DNA of 62,535 bases, counting the filler, from Basidioascus undulatus (Eukaryota): assembly GCA_000826855.1 (NCBI GenBank). It is 5 parts of 5 records of this genome, joined end to end, with 100 filler letters (N's around TTAATTAATTAA, not from the genome) between each part and the next. Parts side by side here need not be neighbours in the genome. Positions count along the whole stretch, not along the records: positions 25,090 to 37,523 come from JTLS01000910.1; 4 more parts are not named here. One strand, written 5' to 3'. Under the pieces are notes generated by a model. It was not told where the DNA came from and did not search any database. It was given only the letters and a program-made list of their open reading frames with translations. The position numbers were made by a program, and so were the translations under genes. This document shows, piece by piece, positions 12,454 through 58,105 of the stretch (positions are counted from its first letter, which is position 1; each line of letters begins with the position of its first letter).

Positions 12454-12553
12454 NNNNNNNNNNNNNNNNNNNNNNNNNNNNNNNNNNNNNNNNNNNNTTA
12501 ATTAATTAANNNNNNNNNNNNNNNNNNNNNNNNNNNNNNNNNNNNNNNNNNNN
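12454..12553. other. Artificial contig spacer (N44-TTAATTAATTAA-N44)
   Basis: 100-nt linker with stops in all six frames; identical at four places. Confidence 0.98.
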
Positions 12554-13208: not shown

Positions 13209-13349
13209 GGCGAGTAAATGCTAGATATTGAGATGGGAGTGGTTGCAGGTCAACCGGCGAGCCTGCAGACGCGCTCGAGTTCAGCGCGCGCGGCGTCATT
13301 TCGTTCCTTGCCTTCGTTCCTTGCCGTCCTCCCATCAACCACTCTCTCT

Positions 13350-14049
13350 ATGCCCAAACCAAAGACGGCCTTCCTCACAGTCGGCTCAACCCGCTTTGAC
13401 ACGCTCATCACATCCGTACCATCGCTCATCCCTCCGCTCATCGAGCGCGGCTTCACGCGCCTCGTCGTCCAGCACGGCAACAGCCCTTGGGTGCAGGCGG
13501 ACATTGACGCTTCGACTTTGAGCGATGGAAGGCTCAAGGTGGAGGCGTGGCCGTTCAAGCATGGACTAAGGGAGGAGATGGAGCGCGCTGATCTGATCAT
13601 CTCGCATGCGGGTGCGCTCGTCCTTGGATGAAGCGACTTGCCTCTGACTGACAACGTTCTCGTTCGCGCTGCCCCTCATTCGATCCATCCGTTCTCGCTT
13701 CATTGTGCCTTTCTGGACTTCAAAGGCTCAGGCTCGATCCTCGAATCCCTGCGCCTGCAGCCGCCGCGCGCGCTCGTCGTCGTCGTCAACGACACGCTCG
13801 CAGACAATCACCAAGCCGAGCTGGCCGAGGCGCTGTCCTTCCGGGACTACTGCCACGTCGCGACCGTTTCGTGCGTGCTCAGACCTCCCACACCAGCTCA
13901 CCATGATCCCAGCTAATTCGGGTATGGTGGCACTCAGATCGCTTTCCGGCGTCCTGCGCAACTTTCGAGATGATGGAATGCGTGCATTCCCGGCGTTTGA
14001 TCCGAACAAGTTTAGGACTTTCATGGATACCGAGTGTGGTTTTGCATGA
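13350..14049 (+). CDS. ALG13: UDP-GlcNAc transferase subunit Alg13 (exons 13350-13611, 13726-13870, 13938-14049)
   Basis: FLTVGSTRFD, LVVQHG, ADLIISHAGSGSILESL, VVNDTLADNHQAELA motifs; canonical introns. Confidence 0.92.
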
Positions 14050-14479
14050 TGTTCTCTTGCGCTGTCCGCCTCCTGCTTGTTATGGTCGGTGAGCTGCGCC
14101 AACGTCAAGGCAAGAGGCGGAGCAGGTAAAGGACTCCGTTTCACATCCGCTTACCCAACCGCATATGCGAAGTCCGTGGGATGCTCTCAAAAGAAGCACA
14201 GCCTGCGGACATACGTAATTATCAAAACGTAACGCAGTGAGTCGATACCGAGCTGCCCGCGACTGATGCTCAGATGCCATGCCCAGAGTGCCAAGGCTGG
14301 CAGCTTACCGCCGGCGGTACCTCTTACACCACTGCTCTAGGGAAAGCCAATCGGTTACAAATAGCTTTTACATTAAATAAGACATAGTACAGTCATGGCA
14401 ACACCAGTCCTAGCCAAGGCGAGCTGTAGAACGGTAGACGAAAGCTCTCGTCTACCCGTTCATTCCCACTTGCGACCTC

Positions 14480-15647
14480 ACCCCAGAGGCCGCCAGCATC
14501 TACGAGTCCGCCGTGCTGGAGCTTGAGGCCAAGAGTGAGCGAGCCCGGAACGGCGCCGACGGCCCTCGTACGACACCGCCCGCGTGGCTCTTGGTCGACC
14601 TCTTCCCCGGCGCACGGGCCACTACGCAGGTCATCGACGAAACATCGGCAGGTTGGGCGCCTAAAGTTTGCACGCAGCAGGGTGAGACGTACTTCCTGAA
14701 GGTGGTCAAGGGAAAGACCTGGGCGGATGACAATGGCGTCGCCATGGCACAGAGGGCCGCGTCGGTTGTGCCCGTTCCGCGCTTCGTGGCCCGCCGCAGT
14801 TGGGTGGACGCTGGGGAGCCATTTGAAGCGTTAGTCACTGAGTTCATCGAGGGGAGCACCTTGGAGGACGTCTGGGAAGACCTCAGCCCCAAGGCCAGGG
14901 AGGGGTACGTGACGCAGATCGTGGATCTTTTGGCCAAGCTCCACACGATAGTGAGCGACAAGTTGCTCCCCGGTGACGCCCAGACTGTGGAGGCCCTCGT
15001 GGCGCGCGACGGGGGGTATAGTGAGTATGCATCCATCGCCGCGTGGCTCCATGCGCTTGCTGCCTGCTATTCCGAGGAATCGGAACCCCTAGCCACCCTT
15101 GCCAGCGAGGCACTGTCCGCCACCATCGGTGAGCATCCCGTACGTCCTCTGCCACAATGACATAGAGCCCAGAAATGTCATGGTCAAGGACGGTGCGGTA
15201 GTCTCCATCATAGATTGGAACCTCGCGGGCTTCCAGCCCTTCCTCTTCGAGTGGACGGTAGTTGACACCGCGCTGGGACTCCACCGCACCAGCTACGAGT
15301 GGCACGTCATGTTTAAACAGGCAGCCGTGAGGCTCCTCCCACGCAGGGACCCGGTCGCGGAGCGGCTGCCCCTTCGCATCTTCAACGGACTCTGGAACAC
15401 CGTGTGGAAGAGGAGGAAGGTGGCCAAGTTCCCGCTGGACTTCATGGTCAAACACGGCGTCGTTGAGGGTGACTTATGGGGGCTTCCTACCGTTGCCGGA
15501 GCTCCAACTGCGTTGAAGGTACACTCCGGCCCTAGCCCACCTGTTACCCACCCGCAGACGCCGCCCAGCACTCGCCCTGGGATAGCGGTGGGCAGTTGCA
15601 CCTTTGGGTTAAAAAGTAGGCTATTCAAATCTTCTCCACGGTGCTAA
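14480..15647 (+). pseudogene. APH/choline-kinase-like phosphotransferase with a 1-nt frameshift at 15137-15139; start uncertain
   Basis: YFLKVV, VPVPRF, VTEFIEGSTL in one frame; LCHNDIEPRNVMV and IIDWNLAG in the next; removing one C restores HPYVLCHND. Confidence 0.7.
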
Positions 15648-22175: not shown

Positions 22176-23510
<1,335 letters not shown>

Positions 23511-24989: not shown

Positions 24990-25089
24990 NNNNNNNNNNN
25001 NNNNNNNNNNNNNNNNNNNNNNNNNNNNNNNNNTTAATTAATTAANNNNNNNNNNNNNNNNNNNNNNNNNNNNNNNNNNNNNNNNNNNN
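24990..25089. other. Artificial contig spacer
   Basis: N44-TTAATTAATTAA-N44. Confidence 0.98.
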
Positions 25090-26003: not shown

Positions 26004-29000
26004 TCAAGCCGCGACGCTGTACGAGACGTGGGCGTTGCTGCAGTAAGAAAAGTTAGCGTCCGATTGATGACTTCCGATTTACGGCCTAAGCGTGCACGCA
26101 CTAGTTGTACAGCACGGGGTTGCGCGTGTACGTGAAGCCCTCGGCGGTGTGCTGGAGCACGGTGTTGCCGTTGCGCGTGAGCGTCGCGCCCATGCCGCCC
26201 GCAGCGAGTGGCAGAGAGAGCTTGTTGACGCCGGCGGAGACGGGGAACGTCTGGCTCGTGCTGCCGCTCCAGATCGTTACGCTACCCGTCTGCTTGGCGA
26301 GCACGACCGCCCAGAGTTTGTCTTCCAGCTGAGGGCAAAAATGGGGTCAGACATGGCCCTGTAGATGTATGGCAAACATAAAGCGGCCGTACCCAGTTGT
26401 AGTCTCTGGGCTTGTCAACCCCGTCACCCGACGCGTTGGCGTCCTTCGGGTGAGGACGAGCCCACATGTAGATCTTGTCCTGCGCAATGACGGGCTGCGA
26501 ACCAGTACGGTACCACTGGATGTAGTAGGACGTGAGGTCGAGCCAGCCTGTACGAAACGGTGGATTTTGTCAGCCATGCAGCGTTCGGCGTAGACATGCG
26601 GCATCTGGCGTACCAAGGTGCGGGAACCCGTCGACCCATCCCTGGCTGTTGGGCTGCGCGCCAGCAATGGGGCCGATGTAGTGGCTCTCGCCATAGTCTA
26701 CAACAACGGAATACTTGCTTAGTTGCGAGACGACGCGAAGTGCAAGAAAGCAACGTGCCGTTCCACGTAGAGAGCTCCACCTCAGTGAACTGGTTCCGCA
26801 TCGCGATCAACTGCTCCCAGCGCGTGAGGTAGGTCCAGTTACTGCAATAACACATCAGTACGAACTGCGCGAAGGAGAACAGAGCGAACGGACTCCGTGT
26901 TGTAGATCCAGTTCTTGTTGTACGTCGACGGAGAGTAGTGACTAGAAGAAACAGTTAGTCGAGGTCTTCCTAGTGTTCAATGCCATTGTAATCTAATCGG
27001 AACATACTGCAAAGCGGAAAAGAGGCATTAGCGCGACGGAAACGAAGGTTGAGTCGGTCTACGTGGTAAAGGACGAACCGTGTAGAAGTGTGGCGACACG
27101 TTGGGCATGTACTGTTTCGAGCCAAGATTACTGATGTACGTCTGGTCCAAAGCCGTCGTGATGCTGGCGTCGCTCACTGTTGCGGCGCAAAGGGCTAGTC
27201 AGCACGACAAGTCTTACAGCAGCCAACGTTGCGGAGGAAAACTCACTGGGCCACGCGGAGTTCCAGTTGAACTGGCCGTCCGCGACGAGGTAGTTGCCGA
27301 AAGTCTGCGGGTCGATGAAGAACGCGGGGACGAAGTGAATCTGTCGATCAATAAAGGTTAGAAGGCTGGCATAACTTCCTAGAACCGAATGACTAACCGG
27401 GCGACCCGCGTTCGCGAGCTGATCCTTGACCTGCGATTGCCAGCCGGCCTGGACATTGCCCCGACCGAACGTGCAGTATTCACCCTGAAGCAAGAGATGT
27501 TGTGAGCCAGACACCGTCAGCTTGATGCGGGAAAGGTATCGAAGCATACCGAGAACGTCGACAGGAAGACCTTGCCGTTCTTGTAGTACTGCGCGGACGA
27601 GCTTGCGAACTCGGTCACGTATTGCCGGACGAGGTTGGCGTGCCACGCCGCGCTGCACGGCAAGCTGGTCATGTCGAGCGAGATGAAGCTGCACACGGTA
27701 TCGTTATGAAGTCAGTGCTCGCGGATGCGTTGAGCGGTTCCTCGACAGCACGCACAGCTTGAAGCCAACAGCCTCCGCAGCCTTGTAGGCGTCGCGAACG
27801 CGGTCGAAGCCCCAGTTATCGTTGCCGACGTTAAGCGCGAAGCCGGTGATGCCCGCGGCTTGCGCCATCTGGATGTCCCTCTGCCAGTCGCTCAGCTGGT
27901 ACGGGTAGGTCTGCCGAGAAGAAAAACATTCCAGCGAGCGTCCAGAACAAGAGGGGCAATGAATGGGGAGCGGCGCACGTTGCCAACCATGTGGTGCACG
28001 AAGACTGTCTTGCTCGAGTCTGCCGTCGGCGCAGGGACGGCCGTGGTCGACGTCGTCGTAGCACTGGTCGTAGTAGACGTGGAGATGGAGGAGGTGGACG
28101 AGGTGGACGAGGTAGTCGGGGTAGTCGAGGTAGTCGAGGTAGTCGAGGTAGTCGAGGTAGTCGAGGTTGTCGAGGTTGTCGAGGTTGTCGAAGTAGACGA
28201 GGTAGAGGAGGTGGACGAGGTTGAGGAGGACGCGGAACTGGTTTTACGAAAGCGGACCACGGTTTTGCTCAACAAATGGGAATGGCAAGGGGGCATGACG
28301 AGCAAAAAACTAAGCACGTGGTGGACGTAGACGTGCTCGCCGTGCTCGTAAGAGTGCTTGAGGTGCTAGAGGTGCTCGAGGTGCTGGTTGTTGTCGTCGG
28401 GACGAGCGTCGTCGTAACTAGCGAGGTCGAGGTGGAGCTCGAAATAGACATAGTAGACGTCGACGAAGTCGAGGCAAGAGAAGTGGGCACGGGCGTCGCA
28501 AGTGAACCTGGAGCATATAAAGCCAATCCAATGAACTCTCCCACTTCTGACTGACAGCGAGCGAAGAACGTACCAGCGACTCCGGCCCAGACGTTCAGGT
28601 TGTACGCAGTTGGGTTGGTAGTGTACGTGAAATCGCTCGGCTGGTAGTCGAGGATGATCTGCGAGTTGCGCACGAGCTGGATGCGGATCTTGCCTGCAGC
28701 TAGCGGGAACTCGAGCTTGCTAACGCCGGCAGAGACGCTGAACTGGTGCGAGCCGGCCGAGGAGGAGAGGATCGCAGTCGCCGCCGCGGTCGTGTGCACC
28801 TCGACCCAGAACTTGTTCTCGATCTGCGGTCAGGTAAGTCGGGATAAAAAGAGTGGTAAAAGGATGAGTTAATATGAGGACTACAGGACATACCGCGTCA
28901 TAACCGGTGGGTCTACCAACGCTGTCCCCGGACGCAGTCGAGCCGGCGGGCTGGGAGATGGAGTAGACCCAGACCTTGTCGGCGGTGATAGACGGGTACG

Positions 29001-30432
29001 TGCCGGTCTGGAACGCCTTGACGTAGTACGCAGTCAAGTCGAGCAAAGCTGGGACGGAAGAATGCGATAACAGTCAGCATTCGTCGCGTGGTGAGTAGGG
29101 AAGAAGCGGTGCTCACCGGTGTGCGGCTTCCCCGTAGTCCATGCCTGGGAGTTGGGCTGTGCTCCAGCTATCGCGCCAGCGTAGCTACTCTCGCCGTAGT
29201 CTGCATACGATTGAGAGTCAGCGAAGAACCTGGTCAATTGCAGGGAACGTAAAGACAAGGCTTGCCGTTCCATGTCACGATGTTGACCATCTCGAGCTTG
29301 CTGCGCTCGGCGACGAGCGCCTCCCAGCGGTTGACGTAGGCGTGGTTGTCCATGTCCGCGACGAGGTTCTTGTTGTACGTGCTCGGTGAGTAGTGCGCGA
29401 AGCGCCAGAGGCTGACGCCGGGCACCCACGACTTGCTCCCGAGGGAAGAGATCGTTGAGGCATCGTTGGCGCCCAGCGCGGCGCTCGAGGTCGGCCAAGC
29501 CGCGTAGTAGTCGTATACGCCATCGACGGGGAGGGAAGAGGCCTGGGAGGGCGTCATTCCGGGGATGAAGTAGATCTGCGTCCGACGATGCCCCATCAGT
29601 TTCGCTCCCAGGCTCCTAGGGTCAAGACGAGGATAAGACGTACCTGCACACCCTGCGCGCTGAGTCTGTTCCGGAAGAGCTGCCACCCGGCGGACGCGCT
29701 TCCTTGACCGAACGTGCACTGCGCGCCGCCCCAGGTGCTGACGACCGACTTGTCGTCCTTCTTGAACTGCGCCGGGTGGCCCGAGTAGTCCTTGACGAAC
29801 TTGACGATCGGGTCGAGGTTGGCCGCCGTCGTGCACGGCCAGGACTCCATGTTGAACGAGAGGAAGACCTTGGTCGGAGAGGAGGTCGACATCGACGTGT
29901 AGTACGCAGAGGCGACGCGGTAGGCCTGCCACCCATCCGTGGCGAAGTTGAGCGCGAAGGCATTACTGCAGAGGGGTCATGGATAAGACCAGAGCCGGTT
30001 TCGGGTGAGGAGGTAGTGAGAACGGACGCACATTCCCGCAGACGAAGCGAGCTTGAGGTCCGCGTTCCAGCCCTCCGAGTAGAGCGAGTCGTCGTAAGGG
30101 TAGGTGTTGCCGACGCTGAGATCAAATCCTCATGTCAGGATACAGATACACCGGCTGATCATAATGAAGCAAAGGAATACGGACATGTAGTGCGCGAGCA
30201 CCTGCTTGTCGGCTGCGCGCTTCCGGTACCCGCCGACGATGCGCAGGTCTTGCGGGACCCTCTCGGTCGTCTCCTCGCCCAGCGCACGGGGGTGGGCGTC
30301 GACCGACCGCACGCTATCAAGCGCGCCAGGCGCAGGAACCGGTACGGCGAGGACGGGGAGGTGGAAGGCGAGGACGAGGAGGAGGATGGCGAGCGGGACG
30401 GCCTGGGTGATGCGGGAGGACGAGTTGCCCAT
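26004..30432 (-). CDS. Secreted alpha-1,3-glucanase with two tandem GH71 modules joined by a Ser/Thr linker
   Basis: Hydrophobic signal and KR dibasic site; VLAHYIVGNTY / VFVHHMVGNTY, FALN, HYSPSTYNKN, TWNDYGES and FTYT.NP..YN each occur twice; multi-exon splicing keeps the frame to NAHVSYSVAA*. Confidence 0.92.
26942..27079 (-). other. Predicted [D1,2] stwintron (internal intron 27078-27007 nested in the donor of the external intron)
   Basis: ..TAC AC|G[GTTCGT..GCTAAT..GCAG]TATGT..CTAAC..TAG|T CAC TAC; of the splice models I tested, only two-step splicing restores FYTHYSPSTYNKN. Confidence 0.75.
28030..28480 (-). repeat. Coding Thr/Ser-rich low-complexity linker with 9-bp (GTAGTCGAG)n units
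   Basis: Encodes (TST)n between the GH71 modules; split by one intron. Confidence 0.85.
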
Positions 30433-37523: not shown

Positions 37524-37623
37524 NNNNNNNNNNNNNNNNNNNNNNNNNNNNNNNNNNNNNNNNNNNNTTAATTAATTAANNNNNNNNNNNNNNNNNNNNN
37601 NNNNNNNNNNNNNNNNNNNNNNN
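37524..37623. other. Artificial contig spacer
   Basis: N44-TTAATTAATTAA-N44. Confidence 0.98.
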
Positions 37624-50046: not shown

Positions 50047-50146
50047 NNNNNNNNNNNNNNNNNNNNNNNNNNNNNNNNNNNNNNNNNNNNTTAATTAATT
50101 AANNNNNNNNNNNNNNNNNNNNNNNNNNNNNNNNNNNNNNNNNNNN
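50047..50146. other. Artificial contig spacer
   Basis: N44-TTAATTAATTAA-N44. Confidence 0.98.
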
Positions 50147-57322: not shown

Positions 57323-58105
57323 ATGCCGCCCATTCACTGCGTTGCCGACATCGACAATCTCACCGAACATCTTCTATCATGCGCACACTCCCTGCCAGTC
57401 CATGTCGACAGCAGCTCCCCGCGGGCCCGCTACTGCGTTGCGCTCGCAGGCATACCGGGGTCCGGCAAGTCGTCGGTCGCGTCTGCGCTCGTTGCATCCG
57501 TCAATGCCCGAGCAGGATGCGAGTTCGCGATCGTCATCCCTATGGACGGATTCCACCGCACTCGTGCCTCCCTCGACGCCGATGAGGACCCAGTGTACTC
57601 GCACACCCGCCGAGGCGCGCCCTTTACTTTCGATCCGTCTCGACTACTCGACCTTGCGCGACGGGTACGCACGACCACCGGCCCGTTGACTGCGCCTTCG
57701 TTCTCCCATGCGCTCAGAGACCCGGTCGAGGACGATGTGCGGATTGACGCTCAGCACCGCGTGATCGTCTTCGAGGGCTCTTTTCTCCTTCTCGACGAGC
57801 AGCCTTGGGCGGATATCGCCCGCAGGATGGACGAGCGGTGGTTCCTGTCGGTGCCCCGTTCGACAGCGAGAGTGCGCGTAATGCGCAGGCATGTTCTCGC
57901 GGGGCTGGCTGGTACTCTGGAGGAGGCGGCATCGAAGGCGGATACAAACGACATGCTCAACGCTGAGCTCATCGAGAGTAGGATGGTTACTCCTGATCGA
58001 ATCTTGGTCGAGGAGGCCGAAAAGGACATCTCCGTGGCGTCGCTCTGTAAGCATTTTCCTGCGTGGTTTGACAGTATTTCTGACGATCTATTTTGGTTTC
58101 ATTGA
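57323..58105 (+). CDS. YFH7-like P-loop kinase (phosphoribulokinase/uridine kinase/pantothenate kinase superfamily)
   Basis: Walker A AGIPGSGKS, PMDGFH, RRGAPFTFD, DPVED, VIVFEG.FLLL; single ORF. Confidence 0.88.
   Translation: MPPIHCVADIDNLTEHLLSCAHSLPVHVDSSSPRARYCVALAGIPGSGKSSVASALVASVNARAGCEFAIVIPMDGFHRTRASLDADEDPVYSHTRRGAPFTFDPSRLLDLARRVRTTTGPLTAPSFSHALRDPVEDDVRIDAQHRVIVFEGSFLLLDEQPWADIARRMDERWFLSVPRSTARVRVMRRHVLAGLAGTLEEAASKADTNDMLNAELIESRMVTPDRILVEEAEKDISVASLCKHFPAWFDSISDDLFWFH

Follow-up and report, generated by a model that had tools for sequence, protein, structure and literature searches.

The sequence considered here is a 62,535-nucleotide (nt) stretch of the Basidioascus undulatus genome assembly GCA_000826855.1 (the window; all positions count along it), and the element of interest is a 138-nt intervening sequence in a predicted glucanase gene on its minus strand. 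The coding region that it interrupts, which we call module 2, also contains ten ordinary introns of 52-70 nt, nine with a GT donor and one with a GC donor, and ends with the stop codon TGA at 26006-26004. Translations of nine exons from this region were compared with Pfam. Eight of them matched the GH71 family (Glyco_hydro_71, PF03659), with E-values from 8.5e-15 to 0.0075, and their order follows the profile between positions 12 and 375; the ninth, a 29-amino-acid (aa) exon, had no Pfam match. On these significant and collinear matches module 2 belongs to GH71, the alpha-1,3-glucanase family, with a putative glucanase activity. A second, more divergent GH71 module (module 1) lies upstream of module 2 at about 28300-30100, also on the minus strand, behind a Ser/Thr-rich repeat.

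Read on the minus strand, the upstream exon ends with ..TTC TAC AC at 27080, and the next exon begins with T CAC TAC at 26941. Between them, a single G (27079) is followed by a 72-nt unit that, by its motifs, is a complete U2 intron of ordinary size (branch element GCTAAT at 27032-27027, whose branch A, 27028, lies 21 nt before the 3' end), and then by 65 nt that begin with TATGT and have an acceptor and a branch element of their own (ACTAAC at 26959-26954, whose branch A, 26955, lies 13 nt before the 3' end). With the internal unit removed, G27079 meets TATGT and the canonical donor GTATGT is rebuilt; the external unit then measures 66 nt (G + 65 nt), again an ordinary size beside the 52-70 nt of the other introns, and 138 = 72 + 66. 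This corresponds to a [D1,2] spliceosomal twin intron (stwintron). The published search model for this type (PMC9024468) consists of a donor G1T2NNG5N, a branch element DYTRAY, an acceptor HAG and 5'-GGY..AG ends. Both units satisfy it, and the sequence removed as a whole is GGT..TAG, starting 1 nt upstream of the first GT. The original prediction for this locus had claimed the minus-strand order of G, 72 nt and TATGT..TAG, which proved correct to the base; its arithmetic, by which excision of 72 nt creates GTATGT and leaves a 66-nt intron, likewise holds, as does its statement that each unit has its own branch site (GCTAAT and ACTAAC); the size, which it called typical of the genome, agrees with the gene's other introns (72 and 66 nt against 52-70 nt).

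We compared the window with three sequencing runs, each represented by one contig: X1 (2014), X2 (2025, from another study) and X3, which comes from the same sample as X2. X3 bears the label 'DNA?', which is a guess, and no listed run is recorded as RNA. Over positions 26100-28000 the X1 and X2 contigs equal the window exactly, with no substitutions and no indels; a miscounted G is thus unlikely, and GG at 27079/27078 very probably real. The X3 contig, 1,498 nt long with 0 mismatches to the window, skips ten segments. Eight of its ten joints have GT..AG borders, one has GC..AG borders (26698-26758), and one, spanning the 138 nt, has GG..AG borders. These joints are absent from the DNA runs X1 and X2, and all but one of them have canonical splice borders; the X3 contig is therefore transcript-derived. 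At the joint of interest, X3 connects 26941 to 27080 and skips 138 nt whose plus-strand ends are CT..CC, i.e. GG..AG on the minus strand (side 48). The joint is unambiguous, in that no base could be assigned to either side (both = 0). Positions 744-874 of the X3 record are exactly filled by the 48-nt downstream exon and the 83-nt exon that follows it (PF03659 profile positions 207-230), which leaves the joint without any intervening letters, and record positions 647-743 correspond to 27176-27080, which makes G27079 intronic in the mature transcript. The mature junction 27080/26941 with its apparent GG..AG ends had been predicted, as a check set beforehand, and it is what the X3 contig contains; an assembly error at G27079, which had been named as a possible refutation, fails against the identity of X1 and X2 with the window.

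Table 1. Features of the GH71 locus, with positions along the window and the evidence for each.
Feature	Position	Strand	Evidence
Whole intervening sequence, 138 nt, probable [D1,2] stwintron, apparent GG..AG ends	26942..27079	minus	X3 contig joint 27080/26941; sequence
Internal intron, 72 nt: donor GTTCGT 27078-27073, acceptor CAG 27009-27007	27007..27078	minus	sequence motifs
G1 of external donor	27079..27079	minus	missing from X3 transcript contig, present in DNA runs X1 and X2
Rest of external intron, 65 nt: TATGT 27006-27002, acceptor TAG 26944-26942	26942..27006	minus	sequence motifs
GH71 (Glyco_hydro_71) module 2 coding region	26004..28011	minus	ten ordinary introns + stwintron; X3 joints, open frame, PF03659 collinearity
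Upstream exon, 97 nt, ends ..VSPHFY + AC (first two bases of Thr codon)	27080..27176	minus	X3 contig piece; PF03659 profile positions 160-189
Downstream exon, 48 nt: T (third base of Thr codon) + HYSPSTYNKNWIYNT + GA	26894..26941	minus	X3 joints 26941/27080 and 26841/26894; translation
Intron, 64 nt, GTGCGT..GCTAAC..CAG	26038-26101	minus	loose end of X3 contig maps to 26008-26037
GC-donor intron after ..TWN (GCACGT; GC..AG)	26698-26758	minus	joint in X3
Predicted module 1 intron homologous to 26698-26758, GC start (GCAAGC)	29201-29265	minus	sequence
Paralogous module 1 exon, 103 aa, ..SLWRFAHYSPSTYNKN.., without an intron at the homologous place	29267..29575	minus	continuous open reading frame; PF03659 profile positions 121-230

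The junction is also the one that the protein family calls for. Joined as in X3, the exons form a single open frame through module 2 (..SPHFYTHYSPSTYNKNWIY..), in which the junction peptide reads ..VSPHFYT|HYSPSTYNKNWIY.., i.e. FYT|HYSPSTYNKN, and if AC joins T-CAC, the 17 PF03659 profile positions between the flanking matches (190-206) are filled by exactly 17 residues. A search with a 51-aa exon against proteins returned 10 candidates, none significant. Relatives were represented by a search with the module 1 exon against 1.84 billion representative proteins, which gave 87 matches at E <=0.001; from these, 22 relatives whose match spans most of the query were aligned. The junction columns, F[FY]T|HY, are gapless in 20 of the 22. 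Of the remaining two, P0199 has a 4-column gap three residues downstream of the junction, and P0153 departs from the others along a stretch of about 25 residues, for which an incorrect gene model may be the cause. After these two had been removed and the rest realigned, module 1 and 20/20 relatives were gapless at the junction columns, with a 1-residue gap in P0139 four columns downstream.

Canonical introns do not lead to this product. We exhaustively enumerated the solutions within 27176-26894 that use GT/GC..AG introns and keep an open frame. Among the 27 single and 223 paired solutions, none (0/27 and 0/223) yields the observed peptide, and no canonical single intron or pair thus gives the correct product. 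The earlier claim that a single GTTCGT..TAG intron, or two introns around a TAT micro-exon, would shift the frame is borne out. From a reading of the sequence, use of the GTTCGT donor with the distal TAG (137 nt) would lead to a stop at the next exon junction, and retention of the external unit to a stop within ten codons.

The only route from the DNA to the observed mRNA in which every intron is GT..AG is one of two steps, with the 72-nt unit removed first, and such two-step removal is what defines a [D1,2] stwintron. The mature junction and the DNA sequence are observed, as are the splice motifs, the agreement in size with the gene's other introns and the restored conserved peptide; on this basis we read the intervening sequence as a strict [D1,2] stwintron that is removed in two steps, with a probability of roughly 0.8. 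The internal intron (27078-27007) would be recognized by intron definition and excised first, which would join G27079 to TATGT and create the consensus donor GTATGT. The rebuilt 66-nt external intron, with its ACTAAC and TAG, would be excised second, and AC would be joined to T-CAC to give the codons ACT CAC (Thr-His). The intermediate, and the order in which the two units leave, are inferred. In every tested ascomycete case described in PMC5587772, a [D1,2] layout is removed by two successive reactions, and for ascomycete cases the intermediate has been detected by reverse transcription PCR. The interpretation as a [D1,2] stwintron put forward in the original prediction is supported by the mature junction and the motif model, with the two-step order as its predicted part.

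Several observations weigh against this interpretation. The intermediate, with 27078-27007 gone and 27006-26942 kept, was not seen in the assembled contigs, a form of data from which rare forms are dropped; X3 has no cover inside the 138 nt and so holds no information on it. The transcript evidence comes from a single contig of a single run, the one labelled 'DNA?' and sharing its sample with X2, and X1 and X2 may themselves be sources of the window's own assembly. Among homologous loci from metagenomes (described below), a stwintron at this site occurs in 0/65 of those scored; these homologues are at most about 55% identical, and there is no orthologue with the same layout among them.

The mature junction by itself is moreover compatible with a single, non-canonical reaction that uses a GG donor, in which AC|GG (27080/27079) is cut and joined to TAG|T; the X3 junction fits such one-step splicing equally well, as does the lack of a visible intermediate, and the inner AG|TATGT and inner branch element would then be coincidental. 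We consider this unlikely. As a rule, the first two bases of U2 introns are GU, rarely GC, according to PMC5587772, and the ten other introns of the module (nine GT, one GC) conform to that; the 138 nt would also be an intron twice as long as any other in the module (52-70 nt). The coincidence itself is rare. Under loose rules (donor GT..G[TCG], branch CTRAY, both units 45-100 nt), the full nested layout arose in 69/200,000 dinucleotide-preserving shuffles, and still in 2,051/200,000 if the first 7 nt (GGTTCGT) were granted and held fixed. Among 650 GG..AG 138-mers on both strands of the window, one passes the layout test, and it is this one.

The other two explanations concern the data. If the transcribed allele had one G at 27079/27078, through a sequence error or an allele difference, an ordinary 137-nt GTTCGT..TAG intron would yield exactly the observed AC|TCAC junction and the same mRNA, and the agreement of X1 and X2 with the window would mean less if the window was assembled from these data. 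Against this, the X1 and X2 contigs belong to separate studies of different years (word depths 15.9 and 59.6) and show no differences over 26100-28000, with one contig per run; the X3 transcript and the DNA run X2 derive from the same sample; ACG|GT is present in 8/24 homologous introns at this site (see below), so that GG is natural there; and even at 137 nt the intron would be roughly double the usual length in this gene. We regard a single G as very improbable. More improbable still is a chimeric or mis-joined X3 contig, a suspicion to which a lone contig, and a joint marked 'between: not known', give some room. That contig has no mismatches, its nine other joints lie on canonical GT/GC..AG borders, the coordinates of its record leave no space for extra letters, and the joint restores the family-conserved peptide gaplessly. 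The stwintron thus remains our preferred explanation.

Comparison with known stwintrons places the element close to those of Pezizomycotina. The Aspergillus nidulans dhaoS gene (AN3270) has a phase-2 [D1,2] stwintron with a 57-nt internal and a 56-nt external intron (PMC5587772). As in that case, the layout is exon-G|GT..AG|T..AG-exon, in which the external donor is interrupted between G1 and U2 by the internal intron; each of the two units has a length usual for introns; the interrupted codon is split after its second base within a conserved peptide; a canonical intron model would be spurious; and relatives have canonical introns 1 nt away. The differences from A. nidulans dhaoS are the host, here a basidiomycete, the gene family, here GH71, and the two-step route, here a predicted one. 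Alternatively spliced [D1,2]/[A2,3] stwintrons are described from Trichoderma reesei dhaoS and the Helminthosporium solani alternative oxidase gene (PMC5587772). With these our element shares two end-to-end U2 introns that overlap by one G, and phase-0 and phase-2 positions that lie 1 nt apart. We considered this alternatively spliced type and rejected it: it calls for an exonic G after the last acceptor, and unlike in those genes the base at 26941 is T (TAG|T CAC), which closes the [A2,3] path.

Sequence-similar, internally symmetrical 'sister' [D1,2] stwintrons are known from Hypoxylaceae and Xylariaceae (PMC8469720, PMC12403724, PMC9024468). Our element is of the same [D1,2] type and fits the same motif search model, but unlike the sister stwintrons it occupies an apparently old rather than a new intron position, has no repeat copy in the window and has no symmetrical fold. 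Within the 62.5-kb window no other copy of the 138 nt was found, the best other match being 13 nt long. Hairpin symmetry was rejected (RNA fold z-score +1.33; 185/200 shuffles fold as well), and an origin of the two halves by tandem duplication found no support (local alignment score 12, reached by 1,218/2,000 shuffles). In animals, recursive splicing and nested introns also involve the removal of a long intervening sequence in consecutive U2 reactions. Unlike there, where the splice signals are uninterrupted, the external donor at our locus would not exist until the internal intron is gone; PMC5587772 contrasts such animal cases with stwintrons.

Homologous loci, on which the original prediction had made no claim, in many cases have an ordinary intron at this site. 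With a profile built from ten relatives, 80 metagenome loci that encode GH71 homologues were found, and 65 of them, in which both halves of the motif were located, were scored. As identity to module 2 reaches about 55% at most, none of these homologues is an orthologue. Introns or insertions elsewhere but none at the site were found in 16 of the 65 loci, and 25 are no longer than their coding length requires (intronless or cDNA-like), a count to be read with the proviso that many 'intronless' metagenome loci are probably transcript-derived contigs. In the other 24 the Thr codon is immediately followed by a canonical intron of 43-61 nt, which is in phase 0 in 24/24 cases (ACN|GT...AG|CAC or TAC), and L058, which the pattern missed, has the same intron by eye, giving 25 loci in total. 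This phase-0 intron starts at the donor site of the internal intron (ACG|GT in the window), and ACG|GT itself, as in the window, is found in 8/24. Two loci, L048 and L051, share GTTCGTCC with the window's donor region, a similarity too short to be taken as sequence homology. Among the loci of the phase-0 class, there were no phase-2 or nested introns at the site.

Candidates for further stwintrons among the loci were discarded: the large gap in L062 represents two ordinary introns, and that in L067 a coding insertion. Breaks between high-scoring segment pairs in the loci coincide with the positions of other module 2 introns, after residues 138, 245, 273 and 325. In one locus, L043, whose identity to module 2 is about 50%, an intron occupies L043:2269-2345, 7 nt downstream of the phase-0 site; it lies in phase 1 in the Gly codon of THYG and is a second discordant intron position in the conserved peptide. 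The near-identical loci L015 and L016 versus L020 and L038, with tree branch lengths of 0.005-0.06, differ only in whether introns are present.

A quick tree of 57 rows leaves the intron history unrooted. In it, the phase-0 intron is scattered over several clades, with at least 6-8 changes, and modules 1 and 2 pair weakly (Shimodaira-Hasegawa-like approximate likelihood ratio test value, SH-aLRT, 69) outside the other 50 ingroup homologues (support 81). Because the phase-0 intron of 25 loci starts exactly at its donor, the internal unit looks ancestral. We infer that the phase-0 intron is old and that the internal intron is its surviving form in module 2, where 66 nt with their own branch element and acceptor would have arisen at its 3' border; module 1 would have lost it, together with two neighbouring introns. 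These intron-like 66 nt at the 3' border put the effective exon junction 1 nt upstream of the family's usual place, and the Thr codon is altered at its third base only.

In PMC5587772, the model of a 1-nt intron shift derives canonical introns by loss from a stwintron. The 1-nt discordance seen here is what this model leads one to expect. The phase-0 canonical intron of our homologues equals one end state that this model predicts, and the distribution observed here suggests the reverse direction. Taken as a whole, the proposal would be that this is the first stwintron outside Ascomycota, that it formed when a conserved phase-0 intron (ACN|GT..AG|CAC) turned internal and the junction shifted 1 nt upstream, and that it provides an independent natural case of the 1-nt shift, seen in the direction of formation. 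We offer this tentatively, at slightly less than even odds. As an ordinary intron lies exactly 1 nt away in many homologues, the locus could serve as a test bed for the single-nucleotide intron shift by stwintrons, and also for the addition of a second intron to an existing one.

The original prediction had labelled the host a basidiomycete, and three genes support this: a kinase-like open reading frame (ORF), the GH71 gene and a triosephosphate isomerase gene. The five best named matches of the kinase-like ORF (57323-58102) are from Rhodosporidiobolus and Rhodotorula, at 49-56% identity; Rhodosporidiobolus belongs to Basidiomycota. Relatives of the GH71 gene with an organism name (4 of eight clusters) are from Somion, Serpula, Naganishia and Trichosporon. 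The first 20 matches with an organism name for the triosephosphate isomerase exon 22739-22987 comprise 18 from basidiomycete genera and 2 from Saccharomycotina, with a best identity of 66%. These protein matches place the window in a basidiomycete that lacks a close annotated relative in the collections searched.

Stwintrons have been identified in several orders of ascomycetes (PMC7385547, a review). The earlier remark that they are mainly an ascomycete feature agrees with the passages found, which describe them in Ascomycota only. Where these passages touch on Basidiomycota, they report a stwintron position that is unoccupied in 52 orthologues from the phylum, or a gene absent from it, or mention the phylum incidentally. 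No basidiomycete stwintron is reported in the literature searched, which covers Pezizomycotina and Lipomyces. Within that literature, the element would be the first twin intron of this kind in a basidiomycete, i.e. a known type of stwintron in a new phylum. A transcript-supported case there would extend nested U2 splicing by intron definition to the sister phylum. Since GG..AG borders are not accepted by standard gene callers, these likely mis-model such genes.

Module 1 has, as had been claimed, no intron at the paralogous position, its exon 29267-29575 being uninterrupted. This single 103-aa exon equals four module 2 exons (26842-27246), and three adjacent intron positions, the stwintron site among them, are empty in module 1, which fits a loss of neighbouring introns in a single event. 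The GC-AG intron 26698-26758 seems to have been kept in both of the old paralogous modules (Table 1). Near the end of module 2, the loose end of the X3 contig at 26008-26037 establishes the eleventh intron, 26038-26101, and thereby removes an apparent stop codon: the TAG at 26103-26101 after ..NPVLYN is split by this intron, and the C-terminus of the protein reads ..YNYNAHVSYSVAA. Between the modules, at 28040-28260 (minus strand), lies a Ser/Thr-rich tandem repeat with units of ACCTCGACT type and a weak Pfam Mucin match. The X3 contig extends at least 149 nt past 28000 into this repeat, and the two modules may be one two-domain gene.

Runs of N occur in the window as four pairs of 44 bases, 12 bases apart within a pair (12454-12553, 24990-25089, 37524-37623 and 50047-50146); the pairs are about 12.5 kb apart, and this regular spacing looks like masking, not assembly gaps. 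A Pfam scan of the window covered the first 116 of its 232 ORFs of at least 110 aa, i.e. its first half. Neighbouring genes with Pfam or named matches are those for a protein with a Glyco_tran_28_C domain (13218-13628, plus strand), an APH-family phosphotransferase (14438-15644, plus strand), triosephosphate isomerase (22380-23434, minus strand) and a uridine-kinase-like P-loop protein (57323-58102, plus strand).

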